A stretch of DNA of 64,000 bases from Acidobacteriota bacterium (GCA_965209055.1 OZ242374.1:32001-96000), one strand, 5' to 3'. Shown: positions 34,240 to 53,384, counted from the first letter of the stretch. Program-made: numbers and translations. The notes: generated by a model not told the origin, from the sequence alone.

Positions 34240-35859
34240 ATGCAGCTGTCCGAACTGATCGTCCGGGAAGCCAGGGAACGGGGCCTGAACCACTACTTCG
34301 GCATACCGGGAAGCGGGCTGCCCCTGGACATCATGGATTGGGGGCGGCGTCTGGATCTCGACTTCGTCACGGTGGCCCATGAATCCTCGGCGGCCATCAT
34401 GGCTGCCTACTATGGACTCGTGAGAGAGACGGCGGGTCTGGCCCTGGCGGTCAAGGGCGTCGGAGCCGGGAACTTGGCGGGTGGGGCCGTCAACGCCTAC
34501 TTCGAGCGCGTCCCCGTCGTCTGTTGCTGTGAGCGGAGTCCATTGTCCACCGGCCACCTGGAGCTGGTCTGCCAGTGCTCCCACGGGAAGCTCTTCGACT
34601 CGGTGGTCAAGTCGCAGTGTACGGTCTCTCTCGACTCGGCTCGGGAGAGTCTTCGCGACGCCTTCTTCCAGGCGTCCGATGGCCGTCCGGGTCCGGTGCT
34701 GCTGGACGTTCCTACCGACCTGTCGACGGCTTCCGTGCCGGGTGGGACGCTCGCTCCGCTTGAGGCTCGTCCGTCCGCACAGCCCGACGAATCGAAGCTC
34801 GCAGTTCTCCGGAAGGCGTTGTCAGAGTCCCAAAGACCGGTGGTCCTGGCGGGACAGGACGTGGTCCGGGCCGGCGCCTGCGCATTCCTGCACTCGTTGG
34901 TCGAATCCCTGGGAGCCGCGGTTCTGGTGGAGATGGACGCCCACGGAGTCTTTCCCGAGTCCCATCCCCTGTGGGCCGGGACCTTCGTGGGACACCAGAT
35001 TCCCCACACGGTGGAGGGAGAGCTGGTCCCGCAAGCCGACTTGGCGCTTCTGGTCGGCTGCGACAGCCTGGTTTCGGACAAGAAGTGGGAGTCGGCGGCC
35101 CCCGTCTTCGAATTGGCCCAGCGGAAAGAGTACGAATCGTTGGCGGCCAGTCCCCGCCTCCGGATCGACGGCGATCTGAAGACCTCTTTGAGCCGGCTGC
35201 TTCCGCCGTCCCCCCAGGCCGGATTTCCGGCGTCGCAAATCGCGAAGACCCGGGAGCAGGTTTTGCGGCAGTTCCGGCGTCCGGGCGACGCCCGGCTGGC
35301 GGCTCAGGACATTATCGAGATCACGCGGACCCATCTGCCGGATGACGGCCTTCTGATTTCCGAAACGGGGATCTTCATCCTGATGTTGCATCATCTCTGG
35401 CCCGTGGATCGCCCCGGCAGCCATCTCTGCACTTCCGGCGGACGCACCATGGGCCTGATGCTTCCGGCGATCCTGGGAGCCAAACTGGCCCGGCCCGAAC
35501 AACCCATGGTGGGCATTGGAGCCGATGGCAGCACCTTGATGCGGCTGGGGGAGTTGGAGGTCTTCGCCCGCACCGGAGTCCGGGTCCCTCTGGTGATCCT
35601 GAATGACCACGCGCTGGGCACCATGAAGTCGAGGCAGCAAAGCCGGGGAATGGAGGACTACGGGCTGGATCTGCACCCCATCGATCTGGCGGCCGTGGCC
35701 CGGGCCTCGGGTCTGGCCGGTGTCGTGGTCCGGACGCCCGGGGAATACGAAACGGAACTCAAGAAGGCTCTGGTTGCCGACACCACCACTCTGATCGACG
35801 CGCGGGTGGACCCGAAGGCCTACCAGGACAGCTTCGCCGCCACCATCGGGATCGTCTAG
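34240..35859 (+). CDS. Thiamine pyrophosphate-binding enzyme (acetolactate synthase-like)
   Basis: FGIPG, HE..AA.MA, RPGPV, GADGS...LND TPP motif; the stop TAG is supplied by the MITE end. Confidence 0.88.
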   Translation: MQLSELIVREARERGLNHYFGIPGSGLPLDIMDWGRRLDLDFVTVAHESSAAIMAAYYGLVRETAGLALAVKGVGAGNLAGGAVNAYFERVPVVCCCERSPLSTGHLELVCQCSHGKLFDSVVKSQCTVSLDSARESLRDAFFQASDGRPGPVLLDVPTDLSTASVPGGTLAPLEARPSAQPDESKLAVLRKALSESQRPVVLAGQDVVRAGACAFLHSLVESLGAAVLVEMDAHGVFPESHPLWAGTFVGHQIPHTVEGELVPQADLALLVGCDSLVSDKKWESAAPVFELAQRKEYESLAASPRLRIDGDLKTSLSRLLPPSPQAGFPASQIAKTREQVLRQFRRPGDARLAAQDIIEITRTHLPDDGLLISETGIFILMLHHLWPVDRPGSHLCTSGGRTMGLMLPAILGAKLARPEQPMVGIGADGSTLMRLGELEVFARTGVRVPLVILNDHALGTMKSRQQSRGMEDYGLDLHPIDLAAVARASGLAGVVVRTPGEYETELKKALVADTTTLIDARVDPKAYQDSFAATIGIV

Positions 35860-35973
35860 CAGTCCGTGGTGAAAGTCCCGCGAGCACCGAGACCGTTCCT
35901 GCGCCCGCCGGACAAGGCGCGATTCGGGTGCATACCGGGAGTATGTGCCCGAATCGCAACGCAGTCCGCCGGG
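35857..35973. repeat. Left half of a palindromic MITE-like element split by the island
   Basis: TAGCAGTCCGTGGTGAAAGTC (35857-35877) is the inverted complement of 52029-52049 (19/21); inner hairpin 35919-35957. Confidence 0.8.
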
Positions 35974-36113
35974 CTGTAGTTTGTGGGATGGACATAACGT
36001 CCAGATATGTCCAGTATTGTACATAAGTGTCTGTTTATCATTGACTTATCAGGTGTTCGGACGTTCTCCGGTGTCCCATAACGATCCGCTTCGTCCCCTT
36101 GCATCCACGATAT

Positions 36114-36136
36114 TGTGGGGGTATAGTGGTGGGTAT
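36114..36136 (+). promoter_or_regulatory. Candidate integrase arm-type binding repeats
   Basis: TGTGGGGGTAT-AGTGGTGGGTAT directly before int; resembles the GGGGGTAT repeats seen before P4-like integrases. Confidence 0.4.
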
Positions 36137-37358
36137 GGCACTCGTGAAACGTCCCCCGAAACGCAAACCGCGCGGGCGGCATCCCCTCAACGCCCTGACA
36201 CCGGTCTTTGTCCGCAACGTGAATCAGGCCGGACGCTACTGCGACGGCCAGGGCCTCTATCTCGACGTCCGGCCCACGGGCAGCCGGGGTTGGATTCAAC
36301 GTCTCACCATCCGTGGCCGCCGAGCCGAGCTCGGACTCGGTGGATTCCCCCTCGTCTCGCTCAAGGAAGCGCGCGAGAAGGCGTTCGCCAACCGGAAGCT
36401 GGCCCGCGAGGGGGGCGACCCCCGGGCCGGGAAGCGGGAGTCCAAGTCGATGCCCACCTTCGCTGACGCCACCCGGACGGTCTGGAAGCAGTTGCGGCCG
36501 GGCTGGCGCTCCCCCCGGCATGCTCGGCTCTGGCTGGCGAGCCTGGAGCACCACGCCTTCCCTCGCATTGGTGAGATGCCGATTGCGGAGGTGACGAGCG
36601 CCGACGTGATCGGAATTCTCGCTCCGATCTGGCACGAGAAGGCCTCCACCGCCCGGAAGCTGCGCCAGCGCATCCGCGCGGTCCTGGAGTGGGCCGTGGC
36701 GATGGATCTTCGGCCCGACAACCCCTGTGACCGGATCGGCCCGGTGCTCGGTGCGCAGGGAAAGGTGGTGCGCCACATGCGGGCGTTGCCCCACCGCGAG
36801 GTGGCGGCCGCACTTGAGTCGGTGCAGGGGTCCAACGCGCGGCCGGTGTTGAAGCTGGCCTTCGAGTTCCTGGTGCTGACGGCGACACGCTCCGGCGAGG
36901 TCCGCAGGGCGGCTTGGACGGAGATCGACCGGGAGGAGGGGGTGTGGACCATCCCGGCCGCACGGACGAAAGGGAATCGGGAGCACCGGGTCCCGCTCAG
37001 TCGTCGTGCGTTGGAGATCCTCAAGGACGTGCGGTCGGTCGGTGGCGTTGGCCCATTCGTGTTTCCGAGCGTGCGCGGCAAGCCAGTCGGAAACACGGCG
37101 ATGGCGGAGCTGCTCCGGAGGTTGGGGATCGCGGCGGTACCGCACGGGTTCCGGTCGAGTTTCCGGGACTGGGCGGCGGAGGAGACGGATCATCCGCGCG
37201 AAGTGGCGGAGGCGGCGCTGGCGCACAAGGTGCGCAACCCGATCGAGGCCGCCTACCGGCGCACGGACCTGTTCGAACGCCGGCGCCGACTTATGGACAA
37301 CTGGGCGAACTATCTGGCTGGCGAGAGCCGGCAACCGGCATCCGGTCGGCTCCGTTGA
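36135..37358 (+). CDS. P4-like tyrosine integrase with arm DNA-binding domain
   Basis: DGQGLYL.V...G...W and LGLGGFP.VSLKEAR N-domain; catalytic R (TATRSGE), K, HGFR, LAH, AY all present. Confidence 0.95.
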   Translation: MALVKRPPKRKPRGRHPLNALTPVFVRNVNQAGRYCDGQGLYLDVRPTGSRGWIQRLTIRGRRAELGLGGFPLVSLKEAREKAFANRKLAREGGDPRAGKRESKSMPTFADATRTVWKQLRPGWRSPRHARLWLASLEHHAFPRIGEMPIAEVTSADVIGILAPIWHEKASTARKLRQRIRAVLEWAVAMDLRPDNPCDRIGPVLGAQGKVVRHMRALPHREVAAALESVQGSNARPVLKLAFEFLVLTATRSGEVRRAAWTEIDREEGVWTIPAARTKGNREHRVPLSRRALEILKDVRSVGGVGPFVFPSVRGKPVGNTAMAELLRRLGIAAVPHGFRSSFRDWAAEETDHPREVAEAALAHKVRNPIEAAYRRTDLFERRRRLMDNWANYLAGESRQPASGRLR

Positions 37359-37622
37359 TCCGCCGTGCGTAGAGCGCCAGCTTGAAAGTCTGCGCGAAGC
37401 CATAGTCCGCCGATATGCCGCCGGAAACCCACTCAGGCGCAATCTTCGAGAACTCCCGAAAAAACAAGCCCGCCATTTGGCCTGGTTGGCTTGGTGAAAC
37501 CGGGCCAAGGGTTCGGGATAGGCCGTTGGACGTTGTCCTCTCCCATGCGGGGCATTCTCTCACGACAGACTGGAATTCTCCCTTCCCCATCTTCGCAGAG
37601 GCCTTCCCGCAGGGATCAATGA

Positions 37623-37731
37623 AGAAGTGAGCGACCCCCCCGCGCATGCCGCGCCGGTGTCCAACGGAGTGGAACACTGGCAGCGCTTGCGTGACGTGCG
37701 AGGCACGAAAACAGGGGGGTCGCTCACTTCT
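37623..37731. repeat. 18-bp perfect inverted repeat element A
   Basis: AGAAGTGAGCGACCCCCC (37623-37640) / GGGGGGTCGCTCACTTCT (37714-37731). Confidence 0.8.
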
Positions 37732-38028
37732 CCTCCCCGGACTCCCCGTCCGGGCGCTCCTCCTCCAGGAGGACGGGGACAAACCGAAGGGGCTCAACAA
37801 GATGCCGGAAAGGGAGCTTGTAACACTCGCCGCTCCGGGAGTGGAACACACCCCCCCATGTGTGTTTCACATCCTGGGACTTTGCCGGACAGGCCCACCG
37901 GAGGTGGAACACGGACCGGGAGCGGTCCGCCACATTGCCGTCAATGGGACTTTCCGTGCTCTTCGCAGCCCGTGGATCCACGACGTCCACGGGGTCCACC
38001 CGGGACCGCGCGCGGCCCCTCAGGCGCT

Positions 38029-38430
38029 CTACAACCCTCCTCCGGTTTCCGCTGGAATCCGGACCGAGAGCCAGCCGCGGCCCCGGTCGATGCGGATGCG
38101 GTTTTGGGGGATAGGGGCGGTGGCCCGCTCCCGCCGGAGGTCGTCGCGGGCCACCGCGACCACTTGCACCGGGTGGTCTTGTGCGCACAGCGCGGCCCAG
38201 AGCCGGGGGTGCTCCACCCTCCACGAGAGCAACTCCGAGTCGGTGTCCCGGCCGGGATCGACATAGACGAAGGTCGCCCGGTCCTCCTCCAGGGCCAGGG
38301 GGAGCTTGCGGGGGAAGTACCGGCTCCGTCCCCGGGCGTGGCCGGCATAGTGGCGGCACTGGAACAGCCGCCGGGAAAGGCCCAGCGCCTCCAGCGCCTG
38401 CGACAGCTGCGTCACCTGCGGGCCGACAGG
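38029..38430 (-). pseudogene. Probable fragment of a mobile-element-associated hypothetical protein
   Basis: Protein-like segment ALEALGL...RYFPRKLPLALEEDRATFVYVDPG...LWAAL...VQVVAVAR with no credible start or end. Confidence 0.35.
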
Positions 38431-38612
38431 GTTCATGGAGGGGTGAAAGGGCTTCCCGGTGTCGATCCGGGAGTGTAAGTGAGACAACGGGGGCGACTTA
38501 CAACAGGGGAGCGAGTTCACTTACACACGCGATTTCCCCGAACTCTTTGTCGCTCATGCAGTTACGGCCACATTCCCGGCTTCGCCGCGCCCGCACGGGG
38601 AAATCGGAGGTG

Positions 38613-38709
38613 GACGGGAGCGACCCCCCCTTTTTCCTGCCCGGTGCGGGCGCGGGGGTGTTGTGCAACTTACATTTGCACAACACCCCCTGGGGGGGTC
38701 GCTCCCGTC
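38613..38709. repeat. 18-bp perfect inverted repeat element B with nested 15-bp hairpin
   Basis: GACGGGAGCGACCCCCCC / GGGGGGGTCGCTCCCGTC; inner GGGGGTGTTGTGCAA-CTTACAT-TTGCACAACACCCCC (38654-38690). Confidence 0.85.
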
Positions 38710-39249
38710 TCATTGATCCCTAGCGGGAAGGCCACAAAAGACACCCGTGCCGGGCAAGATGGGACGTATGAGTGCCCCCGACATCCCCGAGAAACGCTTG
38801 GAGACCCTCAGGAAGTAGGCGGTGGAGAGGCTCCGCGACCGCCGCGCTTACCGCTGTCCGGACTGCGGCAATCGAAGCTTCCCGCGAGGCCGCGCTTCGG
38901 CCACCGTCATGAGGTTCGAGCGAGCCGGTGCCAAATGCCGGGAGTTCCAGGTCCGGCCGGGTGAGGGGTGCTACCCCTTCCTCGTCTCCGATCCGCCCTA
39001 CCGGACAAGCCCGCATTGTCTAACTTATCGTGCTCTGACCCACGCCCCTGCCCCCCCGGTTTCCAGCGGGGTCCACGGTCCAGAGACGTCAAAATCTTGC
39101 CCAGCCCCGTGAGTCTATTTGTATGGAAAACGAGGCAAGGATTCTATCCGTCAGGTCAGTAGCTCCTTCTACACTTCGGCCAGAAGAGGATCCATTGCAT
39201 CATTGAATACTGTCGAAGGCCAACCTTCTGCCGGGAGGAACCGTTCCGG

Positions 39250-42200
39250 ATGTCAGTACCCACCCTGAAGATCGCACATCGTTGCCGATTGCGATCCGCG
39301 ACCTCACTACTAACCGTAACTTTGGGCTTGGTTCTGCTGGCCGTACCGCAGAAAGCCATGGCTCAAATCGTCCCCGTCTGCGACCGAACTCCGGAAGTGC
39401 GTGACGCCATCGTGGAGAAGATTCCAGATGTTTCCGACTGCAGCGAGGTGACTGAGGCGCATCTGGCCGTGATCACAGGTTTCCTCGATCTGGCAGGTCC
39501 GCACGAGTTTTGGGGTGTTCCCAGCGGCCGCCCGAATCCCATTCCAGAGTTGAAAGCCGGGGATTTCTCCGGGCTGTCTTCGTTGGAAGGACTCCTGTTG
39601 CAGTACAATGACCTGACGACGCTGCCCCCAGGTTTCTTCCACGGGCTGTCCTCCCTGAAAACGCTCAACCTGGAGAACAACCGCCTGACCACGCTGTCGA
39701 CCGGGGTCTTTGCCGGGTTGTCCTCCCTGAGAACGCTCGCACTGAGTGGCAATCCACTGACGACCGTGCCGGCCGGGATCTTCTACGGACTCACCGCGCT
39801 GGACAAACTCAGGCTGTCCCTGCATTACGACGAATTGACGCCTTTCCACGGCGGGATCTTCTCCGGACTCACCGTGTTGAATACGCTCTACCTGACCCTA
39901 TCGGGGTTCAATGATCCGGTTCCCCTTTCCGGGGATCTTTTCTACGGACTCACCGCGCTGAAATCGCTCAATCTCTACAGTCTCAATCGGAGCACTCTGC
40001 CCGATGACTTTTTCTCCGAGTTGTCCACGCTGAAAGGGCTCAAACTGCTGGGCAACCGACTGACCACGCTGCCAGCCGGAATCTTTGCGGGACTGTCCTC
40101 GCTGGAATCGCTCGACCTGAATTTCAATCCACTGACCAGCCTGCCGCCCGGGGTCTTTTCTGGATTGTCCTTGCTGAAAACGCTCAAACTGGTTGGCAAC
40201 GAGTTGAGCACACTGCCGGTGGGGGTCTTCGCCGGGTTGCCCTCGCTGGAGACGCTCGAGATGGATGAAAACCGTCTGGCCACTCTGCCGCCCGGGGTCT
40301 TTTCTGGATTGTCCTCGCTGAAAACACTCAATCTGGGTGTCAACGACCTGACCACGCTGCCGGTCGGGGTCTTCGCCGGGCTACCCTCGCTACAATGGCT
40401 GTACCTGTATCGCAACGAACTGACCGCACTGCCGGTGGGAATTTTCTCCGGACTGTCTTCCCTTAAGTTGCTCAATCTGCGTGGCAACGACCTGATCCAG
40501 GTGTCGATTGGCCTCTTCTCCGGATTGTCTTCGCTGCAAACGCTCGATCTGGCGTACAATCGCCTGACCGCGCTACCGGACGGCATCTTTTTTGGGCTGT
40601 CCTCGCTACAATTGCTGTACCTGGATCGCAACGAATTGACCACGTTGCCGGGCGCGGTCTTCTCGGGACTGTCTTCTTTGGAGACGCTCAGTCTGCGTGG
40701 CAACGAACTGACCACGCTACCGGACCGGGTTTTCTCCGGGTTGACCTCGCTACAAACGCTCGTTCTGACAACCAATCGCTTGACCGCGCTGCCGGACGGG
40801 ATCTTTACCGGGCTGCCCTCGCTGAAGAGGCTCACGGTGTCTCAAAACGAGCGTCTACTGACCACGATGATTTCGCTGGAATTCGCTGGAGAAGGCCGGT
40901 TCAGAGCCATGGCGCAAACCGGAGCCCTCTTCGATATCGAGCTTCCGATCACCGTTGTCAACGGTGTCATCGACGGCGGTTCAAGCCAGCAGATCACCAT
41001 CCCCAGGGGCAGCGTGTATAGCGCCACGTTCACCGTTTCCCGCAATCCCGGCCCGGCCTCGACCGTCTTCGTGGATATCGGCGAGTTGCCCGAGATGCCG
41101 AGTTCCATTGATACGGACCTCACTCTGGTCAAGTCTCCCCACTTGCCGCTGATCGTTCTGGAGGAACCAAATCTGCACTTTGCTCATTTCGCCAATGGGG
41201 AATCCATCACGTCCGAGTTGGTGTTGGTGAACGTGGGCGACGAGCCGATCCGTCCGGTTATCTCCTTTCTGGATCGCGGCGGGAATCTCCTGTCCGGCGG
41301 ATGGCTGGTGGAGATGAGGGAAGGCCTGGAGGTCCAAGAGGACGGCTCGGTGAGGGTTCAGACGAGCGTGGAACCCCTGGGAGAGCTCACAATCTCGACC
41401 CATCCTCGAAGGGTGATGGTGTCCGGATCGGTGCGCGTGGTCTCGGACGGTCCCATCGGCGGGGTCCTCCGCTATGTCAATCCGGGCATCGGCGTGGCCG
41501 GGGTGGGAGCGAGTCCACGCGTCCGGGACGCCATCTTCCCGGCTCGAAACCAGGCGGGAGGGATCCGCACGGCGGTCGCGATCCGTAACCGAGGAGCGGG
41601 GTGGATGAGGGTGCGGTGCCAATTGATGCAAGCGGGCGCCGTGCTGGATGAGACGGAGATCTCTCTGAAAGGCGGCGGGCAGGCGGCCCGGTTTCTCGAC
41701 GAATTGTTCACCCAGACCGATACGTCCGACTTCGTTGGGTCGGTGCGTTGTACGGCGCCGCGCAGCCGGCTTTTCACGGGAGTGGCCGTTGAAATGGATA
41801 CCGAGAATCGGATCTTCACGACCCTGCCGATGGTGCCGGTGGAGCCCTTGGCGGACGGGAGCGGGGAAGGGACTTTGGTCTTCGCGCATTTCGGGAACGG
41901 ATCGTCCATTCGATCCGAGTTGGTGTTGGTGAACGTGGGGACCGATCCGATCCGGCCCTCCGTCTTCTTCTATGATCGGCAGGGCGCCCAAATCGACGCG
42001 GAATCGGTGGTGGAAGTGATGGGAGACCTGGAGGTCCGGGAGGACGGAGCACTCGGCGTTGGGACGGAAATGGGGGCGCTGAGCGAGCTCACGATCTCGA
42101 CCCATAGGCAAGGGGAACTGGTGACGGGATCGGTGCGGGTGGAGTCTGACGGTCCCATGGGCGGGGTTCTGCGCTTTGACGTCCCAAGCGTGGGGGTGGC

Positions 42201-42552
42201 CGGGATCGGCGCCTCCCCGCCCGTCACGGCCGCGATCTTCCCGGCCCGGCGCCACGAAAACGGGATCAACACCGGAGCCGCGATCCACAATCTGGAAGCG
42301 GAAGCCATGACGTTGACCTGCGCACTGATGCAGAACGGTCGCATGCTGGCTGAGACAGAGATCGACCTGGACGCCGGCGGTCAGGTCGCCCGTTTCATCA
42401 ACGAACTCTTCAAGGACGCTGATACCTTCAACTTCGCCGGCTCGGTCCACTGCACCGCGCCCCCGGGCGGAGCCTTCACGGGAGTGGCCCTGGAGATGGA
42501 TGCGGACAACCGGATCTTCACCACATTGCCGATGGTCCCGGTGCACCGATGA
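39250..42552 (+). CDS. Secreted leucine-rich repeat protein 1 (about 18 typical 24-aa LRRs + tandem C-terminal domains)
   Basis: Signal peptide (..KAMA/Q), Cys N-cap VCDRT..C, LxxLxxLxLxxNxLxxLPxGxFxG repeats, two copies of an FAHF(A/G)NG...TTLPMVPV domain. Confidence 0.92.
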   Translation: MSVPTLKIAHRCRLRSATSLLTVTLGLVLLAVPQKAMAQIVPVCDRTPEVRDAIVEKIPDVSDCSEVTEAHLAVITGFLDLAGPHEFWGVPSGRPNPIPELKAGDFSGLSSLEGLLLQYNDLTTLPPGFFHGLSSLKTLNLENNRLTTLSTGVFAGLSSLRTLALSGNPLTTVPAGIFYGLTALDKLRLSLHYDELTPFHGGIFSGLTVLNTLYLTLSGFNDPVPLSGDLFYGLTALKSLNLYSLNRSTLPDDFFSELSTLKGLKLLGNRLTTLPAGIFAGLSSLESLDLNFNPLTSLPPGVFSGLSLLKTLKLVGNELSTLPVGVFAGLPSLETLEMDENRLATLPPGVFSGLSSLKTLNLGVNDLTTLPVGVFAGLPSLQWLYLYRNELTALPVGIFSGLSSLKLLNLRGNDLIQVSIGLFSGLSSLQTLDLAYNRLTALPDGIFFGLSSLQLLYLDRNELTTLPGAVFSGLSSLETLSLRGNELTTLPDRVFSGLTSLQTLVLTTNRLTALPDGIFTGLPSLKRLTVSQNERLLTTMISLEFAGEGRFRAMAQTGALFDIELPITVVNGVIDGGSSQQITIPRGSVYSATFTVSRNPGPASTVFVDIGELPEMPSSIDTDLTLVKSPHLPLIVLEEPNLHFAHFANGESITSELVLVNVGDEPIRPVISFLDRGGNLLSGGWLVEMREGLEVQEDGSVRVQTSVEPLGELTISTHPRRVMVSGSVRVVSDGPIGGVLRYVNPGIGVAGVGASPRVRDAIFPARNQAGGIRTAVAIRNRGAGWMRVRCQLMQAGAVLDETEISLKGGGQAARFLDELFTQTDTSDFVGSVRCTAPRSRLFTGVAVEMDTENRIFTTLPMVPVEPLADGSGEGTLVFAHFGNGSSIRSELVLVNVGTDPIRPSVFFYDRQGAQIDAESVVEVMGDLEVREDGALGVGTEMGALSELTISTHRQGELVTGSVRVESDGPMGGVLRFDVPSVGVAGIGASPPVTAAIFPARRHENGINTGAAIHNLEAEAMTLTCALMQNGRMLAETEIDLDAGGQVARFINELFKDADTFNFAGSVHCTAPPGGAFTGVALEMDADNRIFTTLPMVPVHR

Positions 42553-42568
42553 CCTGAGGAGATTAGAC

Positions 42569-43357: not shown

Positions 43358-43490
43358 GGCAATCGGCTGTAATTCTCTGCCAGATCTCTAGCTGACATAA
43401 TTTATGCGGTCGCAGATCCCCCATCACCTCTGGAGAGAGGCAATCTGGAAATCCCCAAGAATATAGTCCCCAAATCCAAATTGGGACACT

Positions 43491-43658
43491 ACCCGGTTCC
43501 TGTCGGAACTCGTCGATCTGGAAGGTCTGGAGAGAAATTCTCGGGGCGGGACCCAGGGCTTGGTTCGAATCGAGGGGCAGGAGGAGACCGCCGTGGCCGC
43601 AGTCGGGTACTCACGGGCGACGAATTGGTTTCATACGGTGCCGGTGGCGGCTGAGTAG
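43491..43658 (+). pseudogene. Truncated C-terminal fragment of another paralog of the secreted family (not in ORF track)
   Basis: Manual translation TRFLSELVDLEGLERNSRGGTQGLVRIEGQEETAVAAVGYSRATNWFHTVPVAAE* aligns with the C-termini of neighbouring paralogs. Confidence 0.75.
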
Positions 43659-43885
43659 TGGAACTCGACGGAGTGCTGGTCTGGGTTATATCCTCGATGC
43701 CCCTCTGGGAGGGATCAGATGGCTACGCACACCCCAGGCCCCCGGGTTCTCTGAGACTGCCAATCCCTGGAGGAGCGGCTCGTTGATCTGTTGAGTCTGC
43801 GTCCCGTCCTCGGGTTCGGCCAAAAGGCACTCTCCCGCATCATTAATTGCTGACTAAAGTTCTATTCTCTGCTGCACCCAAAGCC

Positions 43886-44689
43886 ATGGATTCATACAAG
43901 CTACACCTCGTCATTCTTGTTGTCCTGCTCTCGGTTGTCGGCCCCATCCGGGGGGCCGAACGGGAACTCCTATTCCCGATCGTGACGCACGTCGGGAACT
44001 ACAACTCCAGGATGGTCGTGATGAATCCATCCAAGTACAGGGTGAGCTACCACATCAAAGGTCTCAGCCCAGGTGCAGGGGGAAGTGGATCAAGCGGCAC
44101 TCTAGAGCCCGATAGCATGAGTGTCTTCGAACCTGGCCCTTTTCTCAGGCGCGCGGATTTTAAAGGTGGTTGGGGATTCGTAAGATACAGTTTCTTGGGA
44201 GTCCCCGACGCCGACAAGGAGCGAGCGAAACGCCTTCGCCTCTTGGCGTGGACGGAACTTCGGCTTTTAGATAAAGAGCATCCTCTAGTTCCGGTAATTG
44301 CAATAGCGAGCATCCCCGCCGTTGAGGCCGCGTTGGAATTCAGAGTGCCTGGTGTATTCCGAAGAGATGAAGAAGCGGCCATAGCGATCCTCAATCCGTC
44401 CGAGGAGCCGGTCCAAATCGAAGTCACTCTGCACCGTTACCGAAGGCCCGTCCGTAACCCGCCGTACGTCCAGGTCAAGAACAGGCTTACTGTGCCTCCG
44501 ATGGAGCGCCTGAGCCGATTTCTGGGGGAGTTGATGACGGAAGGCAAGGACGACCCACTGGAGGTGCCCCCGCCTCCCAACGGCAGCACCCTGCACATTC
44601 GCGGCAGTGCACCTATTGCTGTCGCAGCGCTGCTCTACAACCACGGGACCGGGGCGTATGGGAATCTTCCGGTCGTGAGGGTGGACTAG
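43886..44689 (+). CDS. Secreted hypothetical protein, paralog of 42569..43357
   Basis: Signal peptide; GGW, AAIAILNP, SRFLGEL, IAVAAL, LPVV motifs. Confidence 0.75.
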   Translation: MDSYKLHLVILVVLLSVVGPIRGAERELLFPIVTHVGNYNSRMVVMNPSKYRVSYHIKGLSPGAGGSGSSGTLEPDSMSVFEPGPFLRRADFKGGWGFVRYSFLGVPDADKERAKRLRLLAWTELRLLDKEHPLVPVIAIASIPAVEAALEFRVPGVFRRDEEAAIAILNPSEEPVQIEVTLHRYRRPVRNPPYVQVKNRLTVPPMERLSRFLGELMTEGKDDPLEVPPPPNGSTLHIRGSAPIAVAALLYNHGTGAYGNLPVVRVD

Positions 44690-44803
44690 GTGATCGCCCG
44701 CATAGCCCGGGTCGTTGCATAGATCTTCCGCAGTGCAGACTCCGAGTCCCGAAGCGGTGCGAGAACCGCAGGAGAGCCGCAGACCCTGACCATCGAGACG
44801 ATA

Positions 44804-45607
44804 GTGCATGAGATCCTGTCCCGTTTGAGAGCTGGTCAGTACGTTCTGGATTTAGGGTGCGGAACGGGTAGTTTCAACCGTCGAAACTACCCGTGCACCA
44901 CAATCCGCGTGGATCTGTCTCGTGAAGGAGATGTATCGGTCCAGGCCAACGCCGCTCAGTTGCCCTTCAGGGATAGTGTGTTCGACGCTGTGATTTGCAA
45001 CCATAGTCTGGAGCATTTTGAGAACCTTGATGGAGCACTTCTAGAACTGAAGCGAACAGCAAATCAGAACGCAGCCGTTTTCGTAGCCGTTCCGGATGCC
45101 AACACTCTCACGGATCGAGTATATCGGTGGCTGGCACGGGGCGGAGGACACGTCAACGGCTGGCGCTCGGAAAGGCATTTGGCCCGGCAGATCGAATCAC
45201 AGATCCAACTGAATCATCAGGGTACCCGGCTGCTTCTCACATCTCTGTCGTTCCTGAATCGGAAGAACAGGATCGCTCCGCCTCCCAAGAGGCTGTTCCT
45301 GTTGGCCGGAGGGAGTGAGAGTGCCTTGATCCTTTTGAACTACGTTTTACGTGTGATCGATCGGCTCCTGGGGACTCGACTAGCCGTTTATGGTTGGGCA
45401 ATGTATTTCGGTCACGTTCCGGGACCGATCGACACGAGACCTTGGACGAATGTCTGTGTTCGCTGTGGGTCTGGCCATAGGGCAGACTCGCTCATCAAGG
45501 CCGGCCGGATCCAGCACCGAAGCCTGGTCTGGTGGATCTGGACGTGTCCAATCTGTGAGACGAAAAATCTATTCACTGACGACGCCTACGGTGTTCAGTA
45601 CAACTAA
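44804..45607 (+). CDS. Class I SAM-dependent methyltransferase with C-terminal CxxC...CxxC
   Basis: VLDLGCGTG, LPFRDSVFDAVICNHSLEH; CVRC and CPIC near the C-terminus. Confidence 0.8.
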   Translation: MHEILSRLRAGQYVLDLGCGTGSFNRRNYPCTTIRVDLSREGDVSVQANAAQLPFRDSVFDAVICNHSLEHFENLDGALLELKRTANQNAAVFVAVPDANTLTDRVYRWLARGGGHVNGWRSERHLARQIESQIQLNHQGTRLLLTSLSFLNRKNRIAPPPKRLFLLAGGSESALILLNYVLRVIDRLLGTRLAVYGWAMYFGHVPGPIDTRPWTNVCVRCGSGHRADSLIKAGRIQHRSLVWWIWTCPICETKNLFTDDAYGVQYN

Positions 45608-45701
45608 CCGATGCGTCCGTGGGAGGATCGCCTGAAACCCTCGCCAAAGATCCCAGATGGGAAATAGACAGCCTTCCTTCTGCCTGGAGGAACCATTCCG
45701 G

Positions 45702-48700
45702 ATGTCAGTACACATTCTGAAGATTGAACCGCTTCCCCGATTGCGATCCACGACCTCGGTGCTAGCGGTAACTTTGGGCTTGGTTCTGCTGGCCGTACCG
45801 GAGAAAGCCACGGCGCAGATCGTCCCCGTCTGTGACCGGACTCCGGAAGTGCGCGACGCAATCGTGGAGAAGGTTCCGGACGTTAGCGATTGCGGTGATG
45901 TGACGGAGGCACATCTGGCTGAGATTGAGGGTGACCTCAATCTGGCAGGTCCGTACGATGTATGGGGTATTCCCTCCGGCGATCTCCCGAATCCCATTCT
46001 AGAGTTAAAGGCGGGGGATTTTAGCGGACTGTCCTCGTTGGAAGGACTTGGGTTACATGCCAACAAACTGACTACCCTTCCGGCGGGCCTCTTCCACGGG
46101 CTTTCTTCCCTGGAAACGCTCGCGCTGGGCCGCAATCCACTGACCTCCCTGCCGGCCGGGATCTTCTCGGGACTCATCTCGCTCCAATCGCTCGGGCTGT
46201 CCCTGCACTACAACGATATGGTTCCCCTGTCCGGCGACCTTTTCTCGGGACTCACCTCGCTCCAATGGCTCACTCTGTACATCGGGGGTCCTCTGCCAGA
46301 TGACCTCTTATTCGGATTGCCCACGCTGAAATGGCTCAAATTGAGAGTCAGCGACGGGACGACGCTGCCGGCTGGGATTTTCGCGGGACTGTCGTTGCTG
46401 GAGTCGCTCAACCTGGCCTTCAACCGATTGACCGAGCTACCGGCCGGGAACTTCTCCGGGTTGTCGTCGTTGAAATGGCTCGATCTGCGCGGCAATCGAT
46501 TAACGACACTGCCGGCCGGGATTTTCGCGGAACTGTCCACGCTGGAAGGGCTCGATTTGACAGACAATCGACTGACGACGCTGCCGGCCGGGATCTTCGG
46601 TGAGCTGTCCTCTCTGAAAGAGCTCAACCTGGGCGATAACGACCTGACCACACTCCCGGTCGGCGTCTTCGCCGGGTTGTCCTCGCTGGAAGATCTCTCT
46701 CTGGTTAGAAACAGCTTGACGACGTTGCCGACCGGCGTCTTTTCCGAGCTGTCCTCGCTGGAAGATCTCTCTCTGGGTGGCAACGGCCTGACGACACTGC
46801 CGGTCGGTGTCTTCTCCGGGTTGTCCTCGCTGGAACGGCTCTATCTTGGTGGCAACGGCCTGACGACACTGCCGGTCGGCGTCTTCGCCGGGTTGTCTTC
46901 GCTGGAAGGGCTCTCTCTGGGTGGCAACCGTCTGACGCCGTTGCCGATCGGGGTCTTCGCCGGGCTGTCCTCGCTGGAATGGCTCTCTCTGGATGGCAAC
47001 GGCCTGACGACGCTGCCGGCCGGGGCCTTCTCTGGACTGTCGTCCTTGAAACAGCTCTATCTGGAGAACAACCATCTGACGACGTTACCAGCTGGGGTCT
47101 TCTATGAGTTGTCCTCGCTGGAACGGCTCTTGCTGAGAAACAACGACCTGAGGACGCTGCCGGTCGGGGTCTTCGCCGGTTTGTCCTCACTGCGGGTGCT
47201 CCACCTGCGTTGGAACGAGCTGAGGTCGCTTCCAGTCGGGACCTTCGCTGGGCTGTCCTCGCTGGAAGAGCTCTACCTGAGAAATAACGACCTGAGGACG
47301 CTGCCGGCCGGAGTCTTCTCCGGGCTGTCCTCGCTGAAAGTGCTCAGCCTGAGCGACAACCGACTGACGACGCTGCCGATCGGAGTCTTCTCCGGGTTGT
47401 CCTCGCTGGAAGAGCTCTTTCTGGTCAGAAACAGATTAACGACGCTTCCGGCCGGGGTCTTCGCGGGGCTGTCCTCTTTGAAAACGCTTGGGTTGTATGA
47501 CAATCACCTGACCGCACTGCCGGAGGGGATCTTTTCCGGGCTGTCCGCGTTGGAATCGCTTTGGTTGTCTACCAATCGCTTGACCGCACTGCCGGAGGGG
47601 ATCTTTTCCGGGTTGCCGTCGCTACAAAAGCTTTCTCTGTCTGACAACTGGAACCAACTGACCACAATGATTTCGCTGGAATTCGCTGGGGAAGGCCGGT
47701 TCAGAGCCCGGGCCGACACCGGGGCCCTCTTTGAGATCGTGTTGCCGATCAATGTTGTCAACGGCGTCATCGACGGCGGATCGAGCCACATCAATATCCC
47801 CAGGGGCAGCGTGTATAGCGCCATGTTCACAGTTTCCCGCGACCCCGACCCGACGTCTGCCGTCTTCGTGGATATCGGCGAGTTGCCGGAGATGCCGGAT
47901 TCCGTTGATACGGACCTCACTCTGGTCAAATCGCCCCACTTGCCGCTGAACGTTCTGGAGGCGCCGAATCTGCACTTTGCCCATTTCGCCAATGGGGAGT
48001 CCATCACGTCCGAATTGGTGTTGGTGAACGTGGGCGACGAGCCGATCCGTCCGGTCATCTCCTTCCTGGACCGCGGAGGGAATCTCCTGTCCGGCGGATG
48101 GCTGGTCGAGATGAGGGAGGATCTGGAGGTTCGGGAGGACGGCTCGCTGAGGGTTCGGACGAGCATCGAACCGCTGGGGGAGCGCACGATCTCGACCCAT
48201 CCTCGAAGGACGATTGTGTCCGGATCGGTGCGGGTGGAGTCCGATGGTCCTCTCGGCGGGGTCCTCCGCTATGTCAATCCGGATATCGGCGTGGCCGGGG
48301 TGGGAGCGAGTCCACGCGTCCGGGACGCCATCTTCCCGGCTCGAAACCAGGCGGGAGGGATCCGCACAGCGCTCGCGATCCGCAGCCGGGCAGACGAATG
48401 GATGAGGGTGCGGTGCCAGTTGCTGCAAGCGGGCACTGTGCTGGAAGAGACGCAGATCTCCCTGACGCGCGACGGGCAAGCGGCCCGGTTTATCGATGAA
48501 TTGTTCACCCAGACCGACACGTCCGACTTCGTTGGTTCGGTGCGCTGTACGGCGCCGCGCGGCCAGCTTTTCACGGGAGTGGCCGTGGAATTGGATACAG
48601 AGAATCGGATCTTTACCACCCTGCCGATGGTGCCGGTGGAGCCCTTGGCGGACGGAAGCGAGGAAGGGACTCTGGTCTTCGCGCATTTCGGGAACGGATC

Positions 48701-49349
48701 GTCCATTCGATCCGAGTTGGTGTTGGTGAACGTGGGTGCCGATCCCCTACGGCCCGCCGTCTACTTTTACGATCAGGAGGGCGCCCAAATTGACGCGGAA
48801 TCGGTCGTGGAAGTGACGGGAGATCTGGAGGTTCGAGAGGACGGAGCACTGAGCGTCGGGACGGAAATGGTGGCGCTGAGCCAGCTCACGATCTCCACCC
48901 ACGGGCAAGGGGATTTGGTGACGGGATCGGTGCGAGTGGAGTCTGACGGACCCGTTGGCGGGGTCCTGCGCTTTGACATCCCAAGCGTGGGGGTGGCCGG
49001 GATTGGTGCCTCCCTGCCCGTTACGGCCGCGATGTTCCCGGCCCGGCGGCAGGACAACGGGATCAACACCGGAGCTGCGATCCGAAACCTCGAGTCGGAA
49101 GCCGTGACGTTGACCTGCGCACTCATGCAGAACGGTCGCATTCTGGCTGAGACGGAGATCGACCTGGACGCCGGCGGTCAGGTCGCCCGTTTCATCGACG
49201 AACTCTTCAAGGACGCCGATACTTCCGACTTCACCGGCTCAGTCCTCTGCACTGCGCTCCCGGGCGGATCCTTCACTGGAGTGGCCCTGGAGATGGATGC
49301 GGACAACCGGATCTTCACCACATTGCCCATGGTCCCGGTGCTCCGATGA
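45702..49349 (+). CDS. Secreted leucine-rich repeat protein 2 (about 23 LRRs + tandem C-terminal domains)
   Basis: Paralog of LRR protein 1 including the upstream GGAGGAACC.TTCCGGATG leader; start chosen by homology. Confidence 0.92.
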   Translation: MSVHILKIEPLPRLRSTTSVLAVTLGLVLLAVPEKATAQIVPVCDRTPEVRDAIVEKVPDVSDCGDVTEAHLAEIEGDLNLAGPYDVWGIPSGDLPNPILELKAGDFSGLSSLEGLGLHANKLTTLPAGLFHGLSSLETLALGRNPLTSLPAGIFSGLISLQSLGLSLHYNDMVPLSGDLFSGLTSLQWLTLYIGGPLPDDLLFGLPTLKWLKLRVSDGTTLPAGIFAGLSLLESLNLAFNRLTELPAGNFSGLSSLKWLDLRGNRLTTLPAGIFAELSTLEGLDLTDNRLTTLPAGIFGELSSLKELNLGDNDLTTLPVGVFAGLSSLEDLSLVRNSLTTLPTGVFSELSSLEDLSLGGNGLTTLPVGVFSGLSSLERLYLGGNGLTTLPVGVFAGLSSLEGLSLGGNRLTPLPIGVFAGLSSLEWLSLDGNGLTTLPAGAFSGLSSLKQLYLENNHLTTLPAGVFYELSSLERLLLRNNDLRTLPVGVFAGLSSLRVLHLRWNELRSLPVGTFAGLSSLEELYLRNNDLRTLPAGVFSGLSSLKVLSLSDNRLTTLPIGVFSGLSSLEELFLVRNRLTTLPAGVFAGLSSLKTLGLYDNHLTALPEGIFSGLSALESLWLSTNRLTALPEGIFSGLPSLQKLSLSDNWNQLTTMISLEFAGEGRFRARADTGALFEIVLPINVVNGVIDGGSSHINIPRGSVYSAMFTVSRDPDPTSAVFVDIGELPEMPDSVDTDLTLVKSPHLPLNVLEAPNLHFAHFANGESITSELVLVNVGDEPIRPVISFLDRGGNLLSGGWLVEMREDLEVREDGSLRVRTSIEPLGERTISTHPRRTIVSGSVRVESDGPLGGVLRYVNPDIGVAGVGASPRVRDAIFPARNQAGGIRTALAIRSRADEWMRVRCQLLQAGTVLEETQISLTRDGQAARFIDELFTQTDTSDFVGSVRCTAPRGQLFTGVAVELDTENRIFTTLPMVPVEPLADGSEEGTLVFAHFGNGSSIRSELVLVNVGADPLRPAVYFYDQEGAQIDAESVVEVTGDLEVREDGALSVGTEMVALSQLTISTHGQGDLVTGSVRVESDGPVGGVLRFDIPSVGVAGIGASLPVTAAMFPARRQDNGINTGAAIRNLESEAVTLTCALMQNGRILAETEIDLDAGGQVARFIDELFKDADTSDFTGSVLCTALPGGSFTGVALEMDADNRIFTTLPMVPVLR

Positions 49350-49483
49350 CCTGACGAGAATAGCTAGTGACGGCGGATCTCTGGACACGGGGCATCTGGA
49401 ATATCAATGCGAGGAAAAGTCTGCGCGCTCGTCGTGGAGTTTAAGGAATGATCAACCCAGGATTAGACCATGAGCAAGACTAA

Positions 49484-50673
49484 GGAAGGTCTGATTAAGT
49501 CGAGTCAGCGTTCTGCACGATAATCCCTTCATCATCACTGCGTGGGGGGAAAGACGATGTCGCAACGGACGTTCGCAGATCTGGAATACGACGCCAAGAA
49601 GCGGGTGACCCGTCGGGAGAAGTTTCTGGTCCGCATGGACGGGTTGATTCCGTGGGAGCAGTTGGAAGCCCGGATTGAGCCGTTTTACCCGAAAGCGGGA
49701 CGGGGCCGGCGTCCCTACCCGCTCTCGGCGATGCTGCGGATCCACTGCGTGCAGTTGTTTTACAACCTGAGCGATCCGGGGATGGAGGATCTGCTTTACG
49801 AGGTGGAGTCGGTGCGGCGGTTCGTGGGTCTGAAGCTCACAGGGCCGCTGCCGGACGAGACGACGATTCTGAAGTTCCGTCATCGGCTGGAGGAGCATGG
49901 TCTGGGGGAGGCGCTGTTCGAGGAGATCGGTTCTCACCTGCAGCGTCAAGGCCTGCGGCTGAGCCGGGGGACGATCGTGGACGCGAGTATCCTGGCGGCG
50001 CCTTCCTCGACGAAAAACAAGGATCGGGCGCGGGATCCGGAGATGCACCAGACGAAAAAGGGAAAACAGTGGTATTTCGGAATGAAGGCCCACCTGGGGG
50101 TGGACGCCCAGACGGGGGTGGCGCACACGGTGGTGACGGCTCCGGCCAACGAGCATGACGTGACGCGGGCCTCCGAATTGCTGCACGGCTCGGAGTCGCA
50201 AGTTTGGGGGGATTCCGGATACCAGGGAGTGCAGAAGCGGTCGGAGAATCGAGATCGGCCGGTGGATTGGCAGGTGATGATGAAGCCCGGGAAGCGTTGG
50301 CAGCTGTCGCCGGAGAGTGAGGCGGCGTTGGCCGAGCGGCGTAAGGCATCGGTACGGGCGAAGGCAGAACATGTGTTCGGGTACCTGAAACGGCATTTCG
50401 GCTACGCCAAGGTGCGCTACCGCGGGCTGGCGAAAAACACCCAACGGATCTATCTGCTGGTGGGATTCGCCAATCTGATGATCGCCGAGCGCTCCGGTGT
50501 GACCGCCTGATCGGAATGCGGCACGGCTGTGTTTGAGGCTGGGGAAACCGTCTCGCAATCGCTTGGTCAAGACCAATTCAGGGTTGCAAATCCCAGGTTA
50601 GAGCGTCTGGATCCGAAAAAGGGAGGGATACAAGGTCTGTTTCGCCCCATATGAGGACTTAATCAGACCTTCC
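49484..50673 (+). mobile_element. IS5 family insertion sequence, complete
   Basis: Perfect 18-bp IRs GGAAGGTCTGATTAAGTC / GACTTAATCAGACCTTCC; CTAA target duplication at 49480-49483 and 50674-50677. Confidence 0.97.
49557..50510 (+). CDS. IS5 family transposase
   Basis: PDETTILKFR, IVDAS, KKGKQWYFGMKAH, GDSGY, RAKAEHVF, RYRGL motifs. Confidence 0.96.
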   Translation: MSQRTFADLEYDAKKRVTRREKFLVRMDGLIPWEQLEARIEPFYPKAGRGRRPYPLSAMLRIHCVQLFYNLSDPGMEDLLYEVESVRRFVGLKLTGPLPDETTILKFRHRLEEHGLGEALFEEIGSHLQRQGLRLSRGTIVDASILAAPSSTKNKDRARDPEMHQTKKGKQWYFGMKAHLGVDAQTGVAHTVVTAPANEHDVTRASELLHGSESQVWGDSGYQGVQKRSENRDRPVDWQVMMKPGKRWQLSPESEAALAERRKASVRAKAEHVFGYLKRHFGYAKVRYRGLAKNTQRIYLLVGFANLMIAERSGVTA

Positions 50674-52002
50674 CTAAGTTGTCCCTCGCCGTTCTGCTGC
50701 TTCTGCCCCTGCTGCTTCTGGCCGGGCATTCACAGATCCCGGTCATTACTACGGACACTCCGCTCAAGACTCTGATCGTCCCTATCTACGCTCAGCACTT
50801 TTGGTACGAGACGACGATCTCAGTCATAGAGGCTTCTGGTCTGCCCACGACTTTCTGGGTCCGTGAATATACTGAGGCCGGAGACTTTGTCCACGGGGAA
50901 GGAGAGGAGCGTTTCTTGGCCGAGGACGCTTCTGAGGGCATAAGTTTCCATCCGCTTTTCTTGCACACGACGATTAAGAACGGATGGGCGTTGCTGTTGC
51001 ACCCGTCGAATCGCAAGCTCCATGCCGTCAGTACAGTGTGGAAGTACAATGATGACACGATTGAGTCCAGAGTATCCTCCGCGGCGGTAGAGCCTGCGGC
51101 CGCATTCCGATTCGGTGGATTTCGAGTAGAGGATCGGGAGACGGCGGTCTCGATCATCAACCCAACTGGTCACGACCAAAGGGTGACGATCCAGATGTAC
51201 GCCATGCGCGGGAAGCCTTTGCGGAGGCCGATCGAAGCGAGCTGGAAGATTGGTCCGATGGACCGGCTTAGTCGGTTTATCTCGGAATTGCTTCCCTTGG
51301 AGGAGTCCGTCGGCAACCCGCGCGATGTTGGTGGGATAATCCGAGTTGCCGGGGAATCGAGGATTGCGGTGGGTGCTCTGGGGTTCTCACACGGGACGGG
51401 GAAGATTTGGCATGTCCCTGTCGTTGCGGAACCCCAGAGCCATAACTAAGCCTCCTTCCTTAGTAAATCCAGTAATTCGTCGCTATCAACGTCGCGTCAA
51501 CCCGGCCTTCGTGGGCAGGGCCGTAACCGATCTCCAGGCTGGACCCGCAACTGTCTCTGGAAGGGGCCAAGACCCTTCCGTTGAATCACTCGGTAGCCAA
51601 GATCCGACTATTCTGACGCCTGTGTCCCTCCTCGGAAATCGATGAGATGGGTAAGGGCTTCGCCTGATTAGGAATGAGACTTGACTTGGCCAGGGTGTTG
51701 TCGAGTCGAGCCGACTTGGCGAGGGTGCCCGGCCATAAGCCCAGTCCCGGACGAACCGGCGCGGCAGGAAAGCCGATTGTTGGCGGCCGTGAAAAAGTGC
51801 AGTAAAGTGGCCTTCGAAAATGTCAGGCTCCGGTGGCGTGAGCGGGTGGTAATCCGGGACGGGCATGTCCGTTCACGGCCACGAAGAGCCGAGGACATCC
51901 ATTTCTTTCCGGTGGAAAGAATGGGGGGAACAACGTCTCCAAAACATACGTAAGTCGTTTAAGGTAAATGGTTTACAGAAATTATGGAAATAGTCCGCCG
52001 GG

Positions 52003-52049
52003 ATGCAGGGACGGTCGAATGCCGTGACGACTTTTACCACGGGCTGCTA
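52003..52049. repeat. Right half of the split MITE-like element
   Basis: GTCCGCCGGGATGCAGGGACGGTC pairs with GACCGTTCCTGCGCCCGCCGGAC (35891-35913); terminal GACTTTTACCACGGGCTGCTA. Confidence 0.8.
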
Positions 52050-53306: not shown

Positions 53307-53384
53307 GGCCCGTTTCTGCTCCGGCCACCAGTGATGGAGAGTCCGCATGGTGACGTCAACCCCCGGGTCTGTAAAGTCGTTGCG

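Follow-up and report, generated by a model that had tools for sequence, protein, structure and literature searches.

A P4/CP4-type integrase island that very probably uses a dispersed palindromic MITE as its attachment site in an Acidobacteriota genome

Islands of the P4/CP4-57 type, inserted at tRNA and tmRNA genes, represent the classical genomic-island pattern, and site-specific integrases are regarded as enzymes of a single site, for which they rely on conserved genes present in one copy. Dispersed palindromic repeats are known as landing sites for other kinds of mobile DNA, as with IS1397 in ERIC/IRU, IS110-family elements in REP and the filamentous prophages of Neisseria in dRS3. Miniature inverted-repeat transposable elements (MITEs) that duplicate TA, such as Correia and Nezha, are derived from IS630/Tc1-mariner elements. 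The chromosomal repeat REP13E12 of Mycobacterium tuberculosis is about 1.4 kb long, and Bibb and Hatfull are said to have found in 2002 that several of its copies can serve as the chromosomal attachment site, attB. According to PMC9317374, the element phiRv1, which encodes a serine recombinase, has its attB inside this repeat. Here we describe an island in a stretch of 64,000 nucleotides from an Acidobacteriota bacterium (GCA_965209055.1 OZ242374.1:32001-96000), referred to below as the window; it corresponds to G000:C1:32001-96000 of a single-contig genome (G000) of 6.08 Mb and about 65% G+C. The P4/CP4-type integrase of this 16.0-kb island very probably has its attB within the right arm of a TA-flanked MITE of 165 bp that is specific to the genus.

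The island is taken to extend over positions 35974-52002 of the window, to which all positions refer unless they are marked as genome positions. Two copies of AGTCCGCCGGG, at 35963-35973 and 51992-52002, form the junctions, and this is the sole 11-mer common to the junction regions 35857-36100 and 51800-52049. Inside each copy lies CCGCCGG (35966-35972 in the integrase-proximal junction attL and 51995-52001 in the distal junction attR, both plus strand), the putative crossover or overlap segment; it is the block of identity shared by both junctions and the intact copies of the repeat, and inverted islands read CCGGCGG in island orientation. Outside the cores are the two parts of the MITE. The left part (35859-35973, plus strand) comprises the left terminal inverted repeat (TIR), the left middle arm, the central hairpin (35919-35957) and the beginning of the right arm up to and including the core, and the right part (52003-52047, plus strand) holds the remaining right middle arm and the right TIR. 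The TIRs (35857-35877 and 52029-52049) match at 19 of 21 positions, and the middle arms (35891-35913 and 51993-52016) match in 20 of 24 columns with one gap. The TA at the left flank (35857-35858), which may be a target-site duplication made by the MITE, belongs to the TAG stop of the upstream thiamine pyrophosphate (TPP)-enzyme gene, and the TA at the right flank (52048-52049) is part of the stop codon of a convergent PD40-repeat gene (52047-53348, minus strand).

When 35974-52002 is removed in silico, so that 35857-35973 is joined to 52003-52049, a palindrome of 164 bp results. The initial annotation of this locus had proposed that deletion of the island between the cores rebuilds a nested palindrome of about 165 bp, that the integrase lies some 160 bp inside the left core and that no tRNA is present. 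All coordinates given for the palindrome were confirmed, the integrase begins 162 bp (ATG, 36135) or 126 bp (TTG, 36099) inside the core, and ARAGORN detected neither tRNA nor tmRNA in the whole window. Rfam likewise gave no family at gathering scores across the window and none at E<=1 on 35800-38100, and these empty results rule out a structured RNA gene (6S, SRP or tmRNA-like) as the target. The G+C fraction is 0.52-0.62 between the cores as against about 0.65 in the flanks, and the segment combines the attributes of a genomic island: an 11-bp direct repeat of the core, an integrase at one end, deviant G+C and absence from all eight congeners.

Judged by its domains and signature residues, the open reading frame (ORF) at 36135-37358 (plus strand; 407 aa from the ATG, open from TTG 36099) is an intact P4/CP4-type tyrosine integrase. 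Pfam identifies Arm-DNA-bind_3 (PF13356, 62.6 bits, cut-off 27), Phage_int_M (PF22022, 85.7 bits, cut-off 27) and Phage_integrase (PF00589, 64.8 bits, cut-off 27.1), and a PDB search with a 406-aa query aligned its residues 28-205 with chains named CP4-like integrase. The signature pattern of tyrosine integrases, R..K..HxxR..H..Y, is represented by R264, K291, H349, R352, H376 and Y386 (positions as in the 419-aa ORF). In an alignment of 45 relatives, 42-45 of them share each of these residues. G+C at third codon positions (GC3) is 0.85-0.91 in frame, a value that fits a live gene. Integrases of this type usually, though not always, have their attB where a tRNA or tmRNA gene ends (3'); the junction of this integrase lies in the MITE.

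A blastn search of G000 with the rejoined 164-bp element returned at least nine uninterrupted copies, nearly full length and at 89-98% identity, so that the reconstruction goes well past anything attributable to coincidence. The best of these, C1:1238357-1238521, is 98.2% identical over 165 columns (E 2.5e-76), and further intact copies are located at genome 1074627-1074784, 2985089-2985252 and 4320990-4321153. Intact copies run straight across the predicted joint (...gcagtccgccgggatgcaggg... or ...cgcaacgcagtccgccgggatgcagggacggtc...). By profile census the genome contains five close intact copies with the core, five close copies of a core-less variant (..cagtccgcgcctgtgcaggg.., also given as ..CCGCGCCTGTG..), about eight divergent full-length copies and additional half copies; ten pairs of terminal repeats are spaced at 158-159 bp, and nhmmer gives 63 matches with both strands counted. 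An intact copy folds into one long DNA hairpin (-58.3 kcal/mol, z -9.0, none of 200 shuffles as good) in which the core and CCCGCCGGAC of the left arm are base-paired on either side of a C-C mismatch at the centre. The initial annotation had supposed the reconstructed element to be a dispersed repeat, and intact copies do exist elsewhere in G000 and in all eight congeners, each congener having at least 20 scored matches. Among 32 genomes of other genera in the same family and order the repeat was found in none. With TIRs matching at 19 of 21 positions, a length of 164-165 bp, no coding content and many copies, the repeat has the features of a MITE.

The orthologous TPP-enzyme/PD40 locus contains neither repeat nor island in any of the eight congeners. 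Their sites read ..gtCTAGccgcc.. (in G008, ..gggatcgtCTAGccgccctcccgc..) and G000 reads ..gggatcgtCTAG[CAGTCC...GGGCTG]CTAAccaccctcccgc.. at the same locus, from which it follows that the element was inserted at a TA where the stop codons of two convergent genes overlapped. The MITE thus landed in the CTAG of these stops, and its palindromic ends TAG..CTA (35857-35859 and 52047-52049) now supply both stop codons; the final three nucleotides of other MITE copies also co-vary as a palindrome (TAA..TTA, TAT..ATA, CAA..TTG). A 25-kb metagenome contig of run X1 joins the flanks directly, skipping 16191 bp that comprise the MITE, the island and one TA, and a contig of run X2 is likewise joined. In G007 an independent intact copy located 38 bp from the orthologous site reads TA[element]TA, and other copies are flanked by TA..TA, once by CA..CA. 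Because TA is its own reverse complement, TA duplication and TA preference look alike at the sequence level. Two MITEs are found in direct tandem in G007 (G007:C2:2174454-2174780), overlapping by 2 bases, and a metagenome-contig joint that leads from 52049 back to 35864 fits two MITEs arranged in the same way.

A search of G000 for an IS630-type transposase gave no DDE_3 match. Three wider pairs of TIRs were considered as possible ends of an autonomous insertion sequence (IS); two of them (genome 307803-309158 and 1858745-1860527) enclose only ordinary genes and no transposase, and the third (genome 1002549-1018818, L030) spans 16.3 kb between a fragment of the right end of a MITE and a match to the terminal repeat. 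A REPIN/RAYT relationship was also considered and rejected, as the two weak Y1_Tnp matches (30.8 and 23.6 bits) are at loci with no copy of the repeat nearby. The designation as a MITE is supported by the inverted repeats, the TA flanks and the empty orthologous sites, with no known transposase parent in G000.

The window island is one of several in its genome. Searching G000 by tblastn revealed five integrases at 94-100% identity (the four paralogues at 94-96%), each placed 120-160 bp inside a split MITE with the same core. The corresponding islands are A1, in this window (genome 67857-84049, 16.2 kb), A2 (genome 571454-580350, 8.9 kb), A3 (genome 2474458-2485457, 11.0 kb), A4 (genome 3838517-3848529, 10.0 kb, inverted relative to the MITE) and A5 (genome 4956908-4968852, 11.9 kb). 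Three remnants have no integrase: A6 (genome 4556128-4560882) and I7 (genome 5258827-5273364) retain the distal arm, and I9 (genome 1350199-1363333) keeps only the start of the integrase-proximal arm. A doubtful candidate, I8 (genome 5691036-5707644), was set aside as having no recognisable island arms. The initial annotation had suggested looking for close homologues of the integrase in split copies of the repeat at the same core, and these are found as A2-A5 in G000, A2 being a duplicate, and at five of six related arms in four other species.

The islands are alike only in the first 2.9-3.2 kb at the integrase end and in the last 190 bp or so, and their cargo differs. A3 carries a type ISP restriction enzyme and a Ser/Thr kinase, A5 a type I restriction-modification system, and A4 DUF4357 and T5orf172 proteins. 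The integrase-side arm (35974-36134, plus strand), which contains repeated GTCCAG motifs and is presumably derived from the island's own attachment site, attP, is 86-91% identical in the four other islands of this set (group A) in G000. It is also matched at 75-81% over most of its length (one match being partial) at 13 more places, five at group-B integrases of G000 and eight in six of the eight congeners. The distal arm (51859-51991, plus strand), presumably attP-derived as well, bears the motif ..taa(g/c)tc.tttaaggtaaatggtttac.. and is conserved in A1-A6 and in remnant I7. The MITE halves surrounding different islands are different sub-variants that are also found in intact copies: the TIRs of A5 have the compensating C..G pair of copy 1074627, and in their central hairpins A2 and A3 agree with the variants seen in copies 2985089 and 997735.

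Copying of one island together with its flanks, or homologous recombination between MITE copies, could multiply islands without any site-specific integration, and part of the assembled genome is present twice. Genome 1-173 kb, including the whole window, is an inverted copy of 642-484 kb at 97-99% identity, so that A1 and A2 lie in one inverted duplication of about 170 kb at 98-99% identity. A further 27 kb matches 789-830 kb, and the contamination estimate for the genome is 7.4% (CheckM-type). The segment was either truly duplicated in the chromosome or represents versions from two strains that the assembly has put together. Within this pair the islands are 93.6% identical over the first 1.7 kb as against 98.7% for the flanks, and the cargo differs. 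However, the flanks of A3, A4 and A5 are unrelated, the same junction occurs in other species and the junctions are base-exact at the 11-bp core, and we consider duplication or homologous recombination a very unlikely origin of the islands.

In A4 the MITE is split at the same position, yet the integrase adjoins the right half and the junctions read CCGGCGG, not CCGCCGG, in island orientation. A4 is the sister of A1 in a quick tree (SH-aLRT 96), and orientation is therefore not a lineage trait. The attB core GCAGTCCGCCGGGATGC is self-complementary, by eye, at 12 of 17 positions, and the 7-mer CCGCCGG is asymmetric only at its central base, a near symmetry that would explain entry in either orientation, by allowing the synapse to assemble both ways. 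Under the mechanism that we propose, the integrase would bind the near-palindromic core GCAGTCC-GCC-GGGATGC along with its own arm sites in the circular island, and strands would be exchanged within CCGCCGG. The outcome would be an island with a copy of the core on each side and its integrase gene beside one junction. As the MITE is dispersed, a single genome would offer several attB sites, several of them occupied by paralogous islands with different cargo. Such an arrangement would amount to one element parasitising another, with landing sites that may themselves be mobile. The crossover position, the activity of the integrase and the cause of the two orientations are what we infer from these sequence patterns.

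Several observations weigh against integration into standing MITE copies. At A1, A3, A4 and A5 the MITE copy that is occupied in G000 was not found empty in a relative. Close relatives have no MITE at all at A1 (all eight congeners), A3 (G004, G001 and G008) and A5 (G008), and at A4 both MITE and island are missing from G001 while the contig of G008 ends 71 nt into the MITE. With no copy found empty in one genome and occupied in another, independent integration is something we infer only. A1 and A2 have to be counted once, being a single locus inside the inverted duplication. Occupation of five of ten core-bearing copies versus none of five core-less copies is suggestive only and not significant (Fisher p 0.084). 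Logan contigs of four sequencing runs, which break inside the MITE and drop rare variants, were screened over 35000-53000, and among the joints listed there was no attP circle and none at this locus that leaves the MITE whole. In G003 a related arm with a broken integrase is not adjoined by the MITE. No excisionase was recognised in Pfam and PHROG scans of the island proteins, and the backbone looks decayed, with its ArdC-like gene truncated, so that some islands may be immobile. A joint in the same contigs from 35969 to 52004, with five other letters between its sides, is attributable to a core-less MITE variant from elsewhere and not to island excision.

The empty sites would also suit a single ancestral integration, after which a MITE transposase acting in trans moved the MITE and island together, TIR to TIR, as a composite transposon to new TA sites; the occupied copies would in that case not stand for separate acts of the integrase. 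The flanks of all occupied copies look like those of ordinary MITE insertions, and no copy was seen to switch between empty and occupied from one genome to another. At three of the four loci the close relatives named above have neither MITE nor island, at A4 this holds for G001, though G008 has the MITE, and contigs X1 and X2 have neither at the window locus. Opposite orientations at the same split position (A4; L004/L086, L088, L097) are nevertheless impossible by TIR-to-TIR transposition. The halves around the islands are differing sub-variants common to intact copies, and no transposase with matching ends was found in G000, where there is no DDE_3 match and two of the three wider TIR pairs were examined. 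The loads of 9-16 kb would be about 55 to 100 times the length of the MITE, and the core repeat flanks every island as site-specific recombination predicts. Because of the two orientations, the differing sub-variants and the missing transposase partner we rate transposition of loaded MITEs as improbable, although it could contribute besides integration.

Island junctions at the core of the MITE are also seen outside G000. Five of six related arms or integrases in other species abut the MITE at the core, three of them inverted: these are in G007 (87-89% identity, inverted), G004 (87%, direct, together with an inverted remnant), G006 (inverted) and G008 (a 94%-identical integrase fragment, direct). 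G002 and G005 contain the MITE and have no group-A-type arm. The latter two genomes argue against the idea that the 165-bp repeat is a miniature derivative of the island, consisting of fused island ends and spread by the integrase. Repeat and islands do co-occur in the same genus, and a core-like CCCGCAGGGAT also heads P2, a second palindromic element that is borne by the islands. Yet the island arms inside the cores show no likeness to the MITE past the 11-bp core, the MITE has its own TIRs and TA flanks outside the cores, and core-less MITE variants exist. The 68-306 first-look candidates for the repeat per congener also stand against one to a few related islands, and an origin of the repeat from the island hardly merits belief.

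When one genome of each species was scanned, integrases 74-88% identical to that of the window (loci L107-L148) turned up in assemblies bearing the titles Acidobacteriota, Longimicrobiales, Palauibacter, Versatilivorator, Latescibacterota and Gammaproteobacteria, and most of them have group-B-type cores after unique flanks. They occur under four phylum titles (Acidobacteriota, Gemmatimonadota, Latescibacterota and Gammaproteobacteria), with several per genome, a distribution indicative of recent exchange between phyla unless some of the assemblies are mis-binned. The sequencing runs that hold the window sequence are mostly labelled sponge metagenome.

Within G000 there are 16 integrases at 61-100% identity to the window integrase, and the more divergent groups are associated with other repeats. 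Groups C and D (61-65% identity) have both attL and attR in a second dispersed repeat in five of six cases, with islands of 2.5-16.4 kb, and the rejoined sites each have 3-16 uninterrupted matching copies. The second repeat is built of one to three REP-like G-rich hairpins (GGAGCGGCGACTTTCCTGTCGCCGA) followed by GGGGGGACGGCAGTCCCCCC / GGGGGGTAGGGGGGACGGCAGTCCCCCCTCTACGCTTTCC, and its core is GGGGACGGCA. It is often located directly after stop codons (for example at genome 2226873-2226920, 1094987-1095034 and 4905048-4905084), and one junction, near 818190, contains a run of about 26 G. Inverted cases are present in G001 and G004.

Group B (82-87% identity) appears to target P2: its core CCTTCCCGC is the 5' end of P2, and the island ends abut P2 copies. 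An apparent distal junction (attR) for this group was rejected, being a P2 element that is located inside every island. The start of P2 (cCCGCAGGGAT) agrees with the MITE core (tCCGCCGGGAT) at 10 of 11 positions, a likeness that suggests how the MITE may have been adopted as a target. At loci L008/L125, L066/L110 and L069 and at genome 3152671, only one core separates the distal end of an island from the start of another island or of P2. Such junctions are attP-like or tandem, one of them being a hybrid in which an A-type distal arm is joined to P2 (..cagtCCGC joined to AGGGATC..), and they suggest island stacking and the use of secondary sites.

More distant paralogues in G000, at 30-35% identity, are located at tRNA-Phe, tRNA-Ala, tRNA-Ile and tmRNA genes, and relatives in G028 (43%) and G001 (32-35%) are at tmRNA. 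All repeat-associated integrases group together in a 32-row clade (SH-aLRT 99) that excludes those at tRNA/tmRNA genes, in a quick IQ-TREE analysis that has SH-aLRT support only and long-branch warnings for the outgroups. This clade would have left the tRNA/tmRNA targets that the distant paralogues kept, its sublineages using different dispersed palindromic repeats. Tentatively, and short of favouring it, we can extend this to a broader scenario in which the P4-type clade, at 74-88% identity across phylum titles, left tRNA/tmRNA genes and was retargeted repeatedly, to the MITE, to the REP-like hairpin and to the 5' end of the island-borne P2. Near-symmetric cores would permit either orientation and many sites, and islands would multiply in one chromosome, stack and perhaps ride on MITE transposition. 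Parasitism would then operate at two levels and would carry defence genes and eukaryote-like genes from one symbiont to another.

The P2 element of the window (37584-37761, plus strand) is palindromic, structured and about 180 bp long, with a 5' end (CCTTCCCGCAGGGAT) that resembles the MITE core. Its RNA fold (-121 kcal/mol, z -6.3) has a long stem, GAAGTGAGCGACCCCCC...GGGGGGTCGCTCAC, and Rfam has no match to it at E<=1 on 35800-38100. A second P2-like element lies inverted at 38586-38733 (minus strand; genome 70586-70733). About 40 further copies occur genome-wide, downstream of integrases in all island types, the tRNA/tmRNA type included. P2 may be a regulatory RNA, an origin or a transfer site.

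Between the two P2 elements is a backbone ORF of 163 aa (38029-38520, minus strand), recognised from its GC3 pattern and tblastn homologues, which corresponds in shortened form to the C-terminal domain of a fusion protein of the ArdC-like kind. The long form is a protein of 690-790 aa encoded in tRNA/tmRNA-type islands (genome 1991319-1993664, 477417-479489 and 2522612-2524993); its N-terminal part is ArdC-like, with ArdcN and MPTase-PolyVal (zincin metallopeptidase) domains, and the shared C-terminal domain has no Pfam family. The 163-aa ORF has no Pfam or PHROG match, and the backbone ORFs within 37291-39112 have no family in Pfam, PHROGs or NCBIfam. Very large leucine-rich-repeat (LRR) proteins are the main cargo here. 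One of 1100 aa (39250-42552, plus strand) matches Pfam LRR_8 at E 4e-100 and NCBIfam only below threshold, and another of 1230 aa (45657-49349, plus strand) matches LRR_8 at E 3e-152; a related ORF of 1165 aa is found in remnant I9 (genome 1359757-1363254). These large proteins match the LRR parts of type III effector families, below the family cut-offs only. The island also contains a gene for an S-adenosylmethionine-dependent methyltransferase (44804-45607, plus strand) and an IS5-family transposase (49542-50510, plus strand; NCBIfam transpos_IS5_4 at 336 bits with a cut-off of 140, Pfam DDE_Tnp_1 and a PHROG transposase).

A family of tyrosine integrases thus appears to use a non-coding, multi-copy, mobile repeat, which would give it several neutral landing sites in both orientations, and up to 16 related integrases are present in a 6-Mb genome. 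Since a single genome contains relatives of the tRNA/tmRNA, MITE, REP and P2 types together, shifts in attB specificity can be studied here in a natural setting. The family could serve equally for studies of the interaction of nested mobile elements and of the spread of defence systems and LRR proteins among apparently sponge-associated bacteria, a habitat read from run labels only. Integrases with a short, repeated and symmetric attB may also be of practical interest as multi-copy landing-pad tools.

In comparison with described systems, the islands resemble those of the P4/CP4-57 type at tRNA and tmRNA genes in the Arm-DNA-bind_3, central and R-K-H-R-H-Y catalytic domains of the integrase, in the placement of the integrase beside one junction and pointing inward, and in the short direct repeat, lower G+C and variable cargo. 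They differ in that attB lies in a non-coding dispersed repeat with no tRNA-like sequence, present several times per genome and occupied several times in both orientations. The repeat itself shares with TA-duplicating MITEs its 19/21 TIRs, TA flanks, size of about 165 bp, lack of an ORF and many copies, and here also insertion at overlapping convergent stops; unlike them it has a near-perfect full-length hairpin, and no DDE_3 match or longer element with the same ends was found in G000. REPINs share the near-perfect full-length hairpin, but the two Y1_Tnp loci of G000 are not flanked by the repeat. Elements that target REP, ERIC or dRS3 likewise land safely in palindromic repeats that are dispersed in many copies, yet they depend on DDE or DEDD transposases, not on a P4-type tyrosine integrase with arm sites, and do not form cargo islands of 9-16 kb.

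A full-text literature search, which left subscription journals mostly outside and may thus have missed a precedent, returned no tyrosine or P4-type integrase island with a MITE or REP as attB. The available part of PMC3119063 describes nested insertions among haloarchaeal repeats and there contains no integrase case. The closest precedent found is phiRv1 in REP13E12, also an integrating element with its attB inside a repeated chromosomal element. The recombinase there is a serine integrase as against a P4-type tyrosine integrase here, and REP13E12 is not a TA-flanked palindromic MITE, in contrast to the 165-bp hairpin of this genus. What appears to set the present islands apart is an attB unusual for the P4 type, one that is multi-copy, palindromic and mobile.

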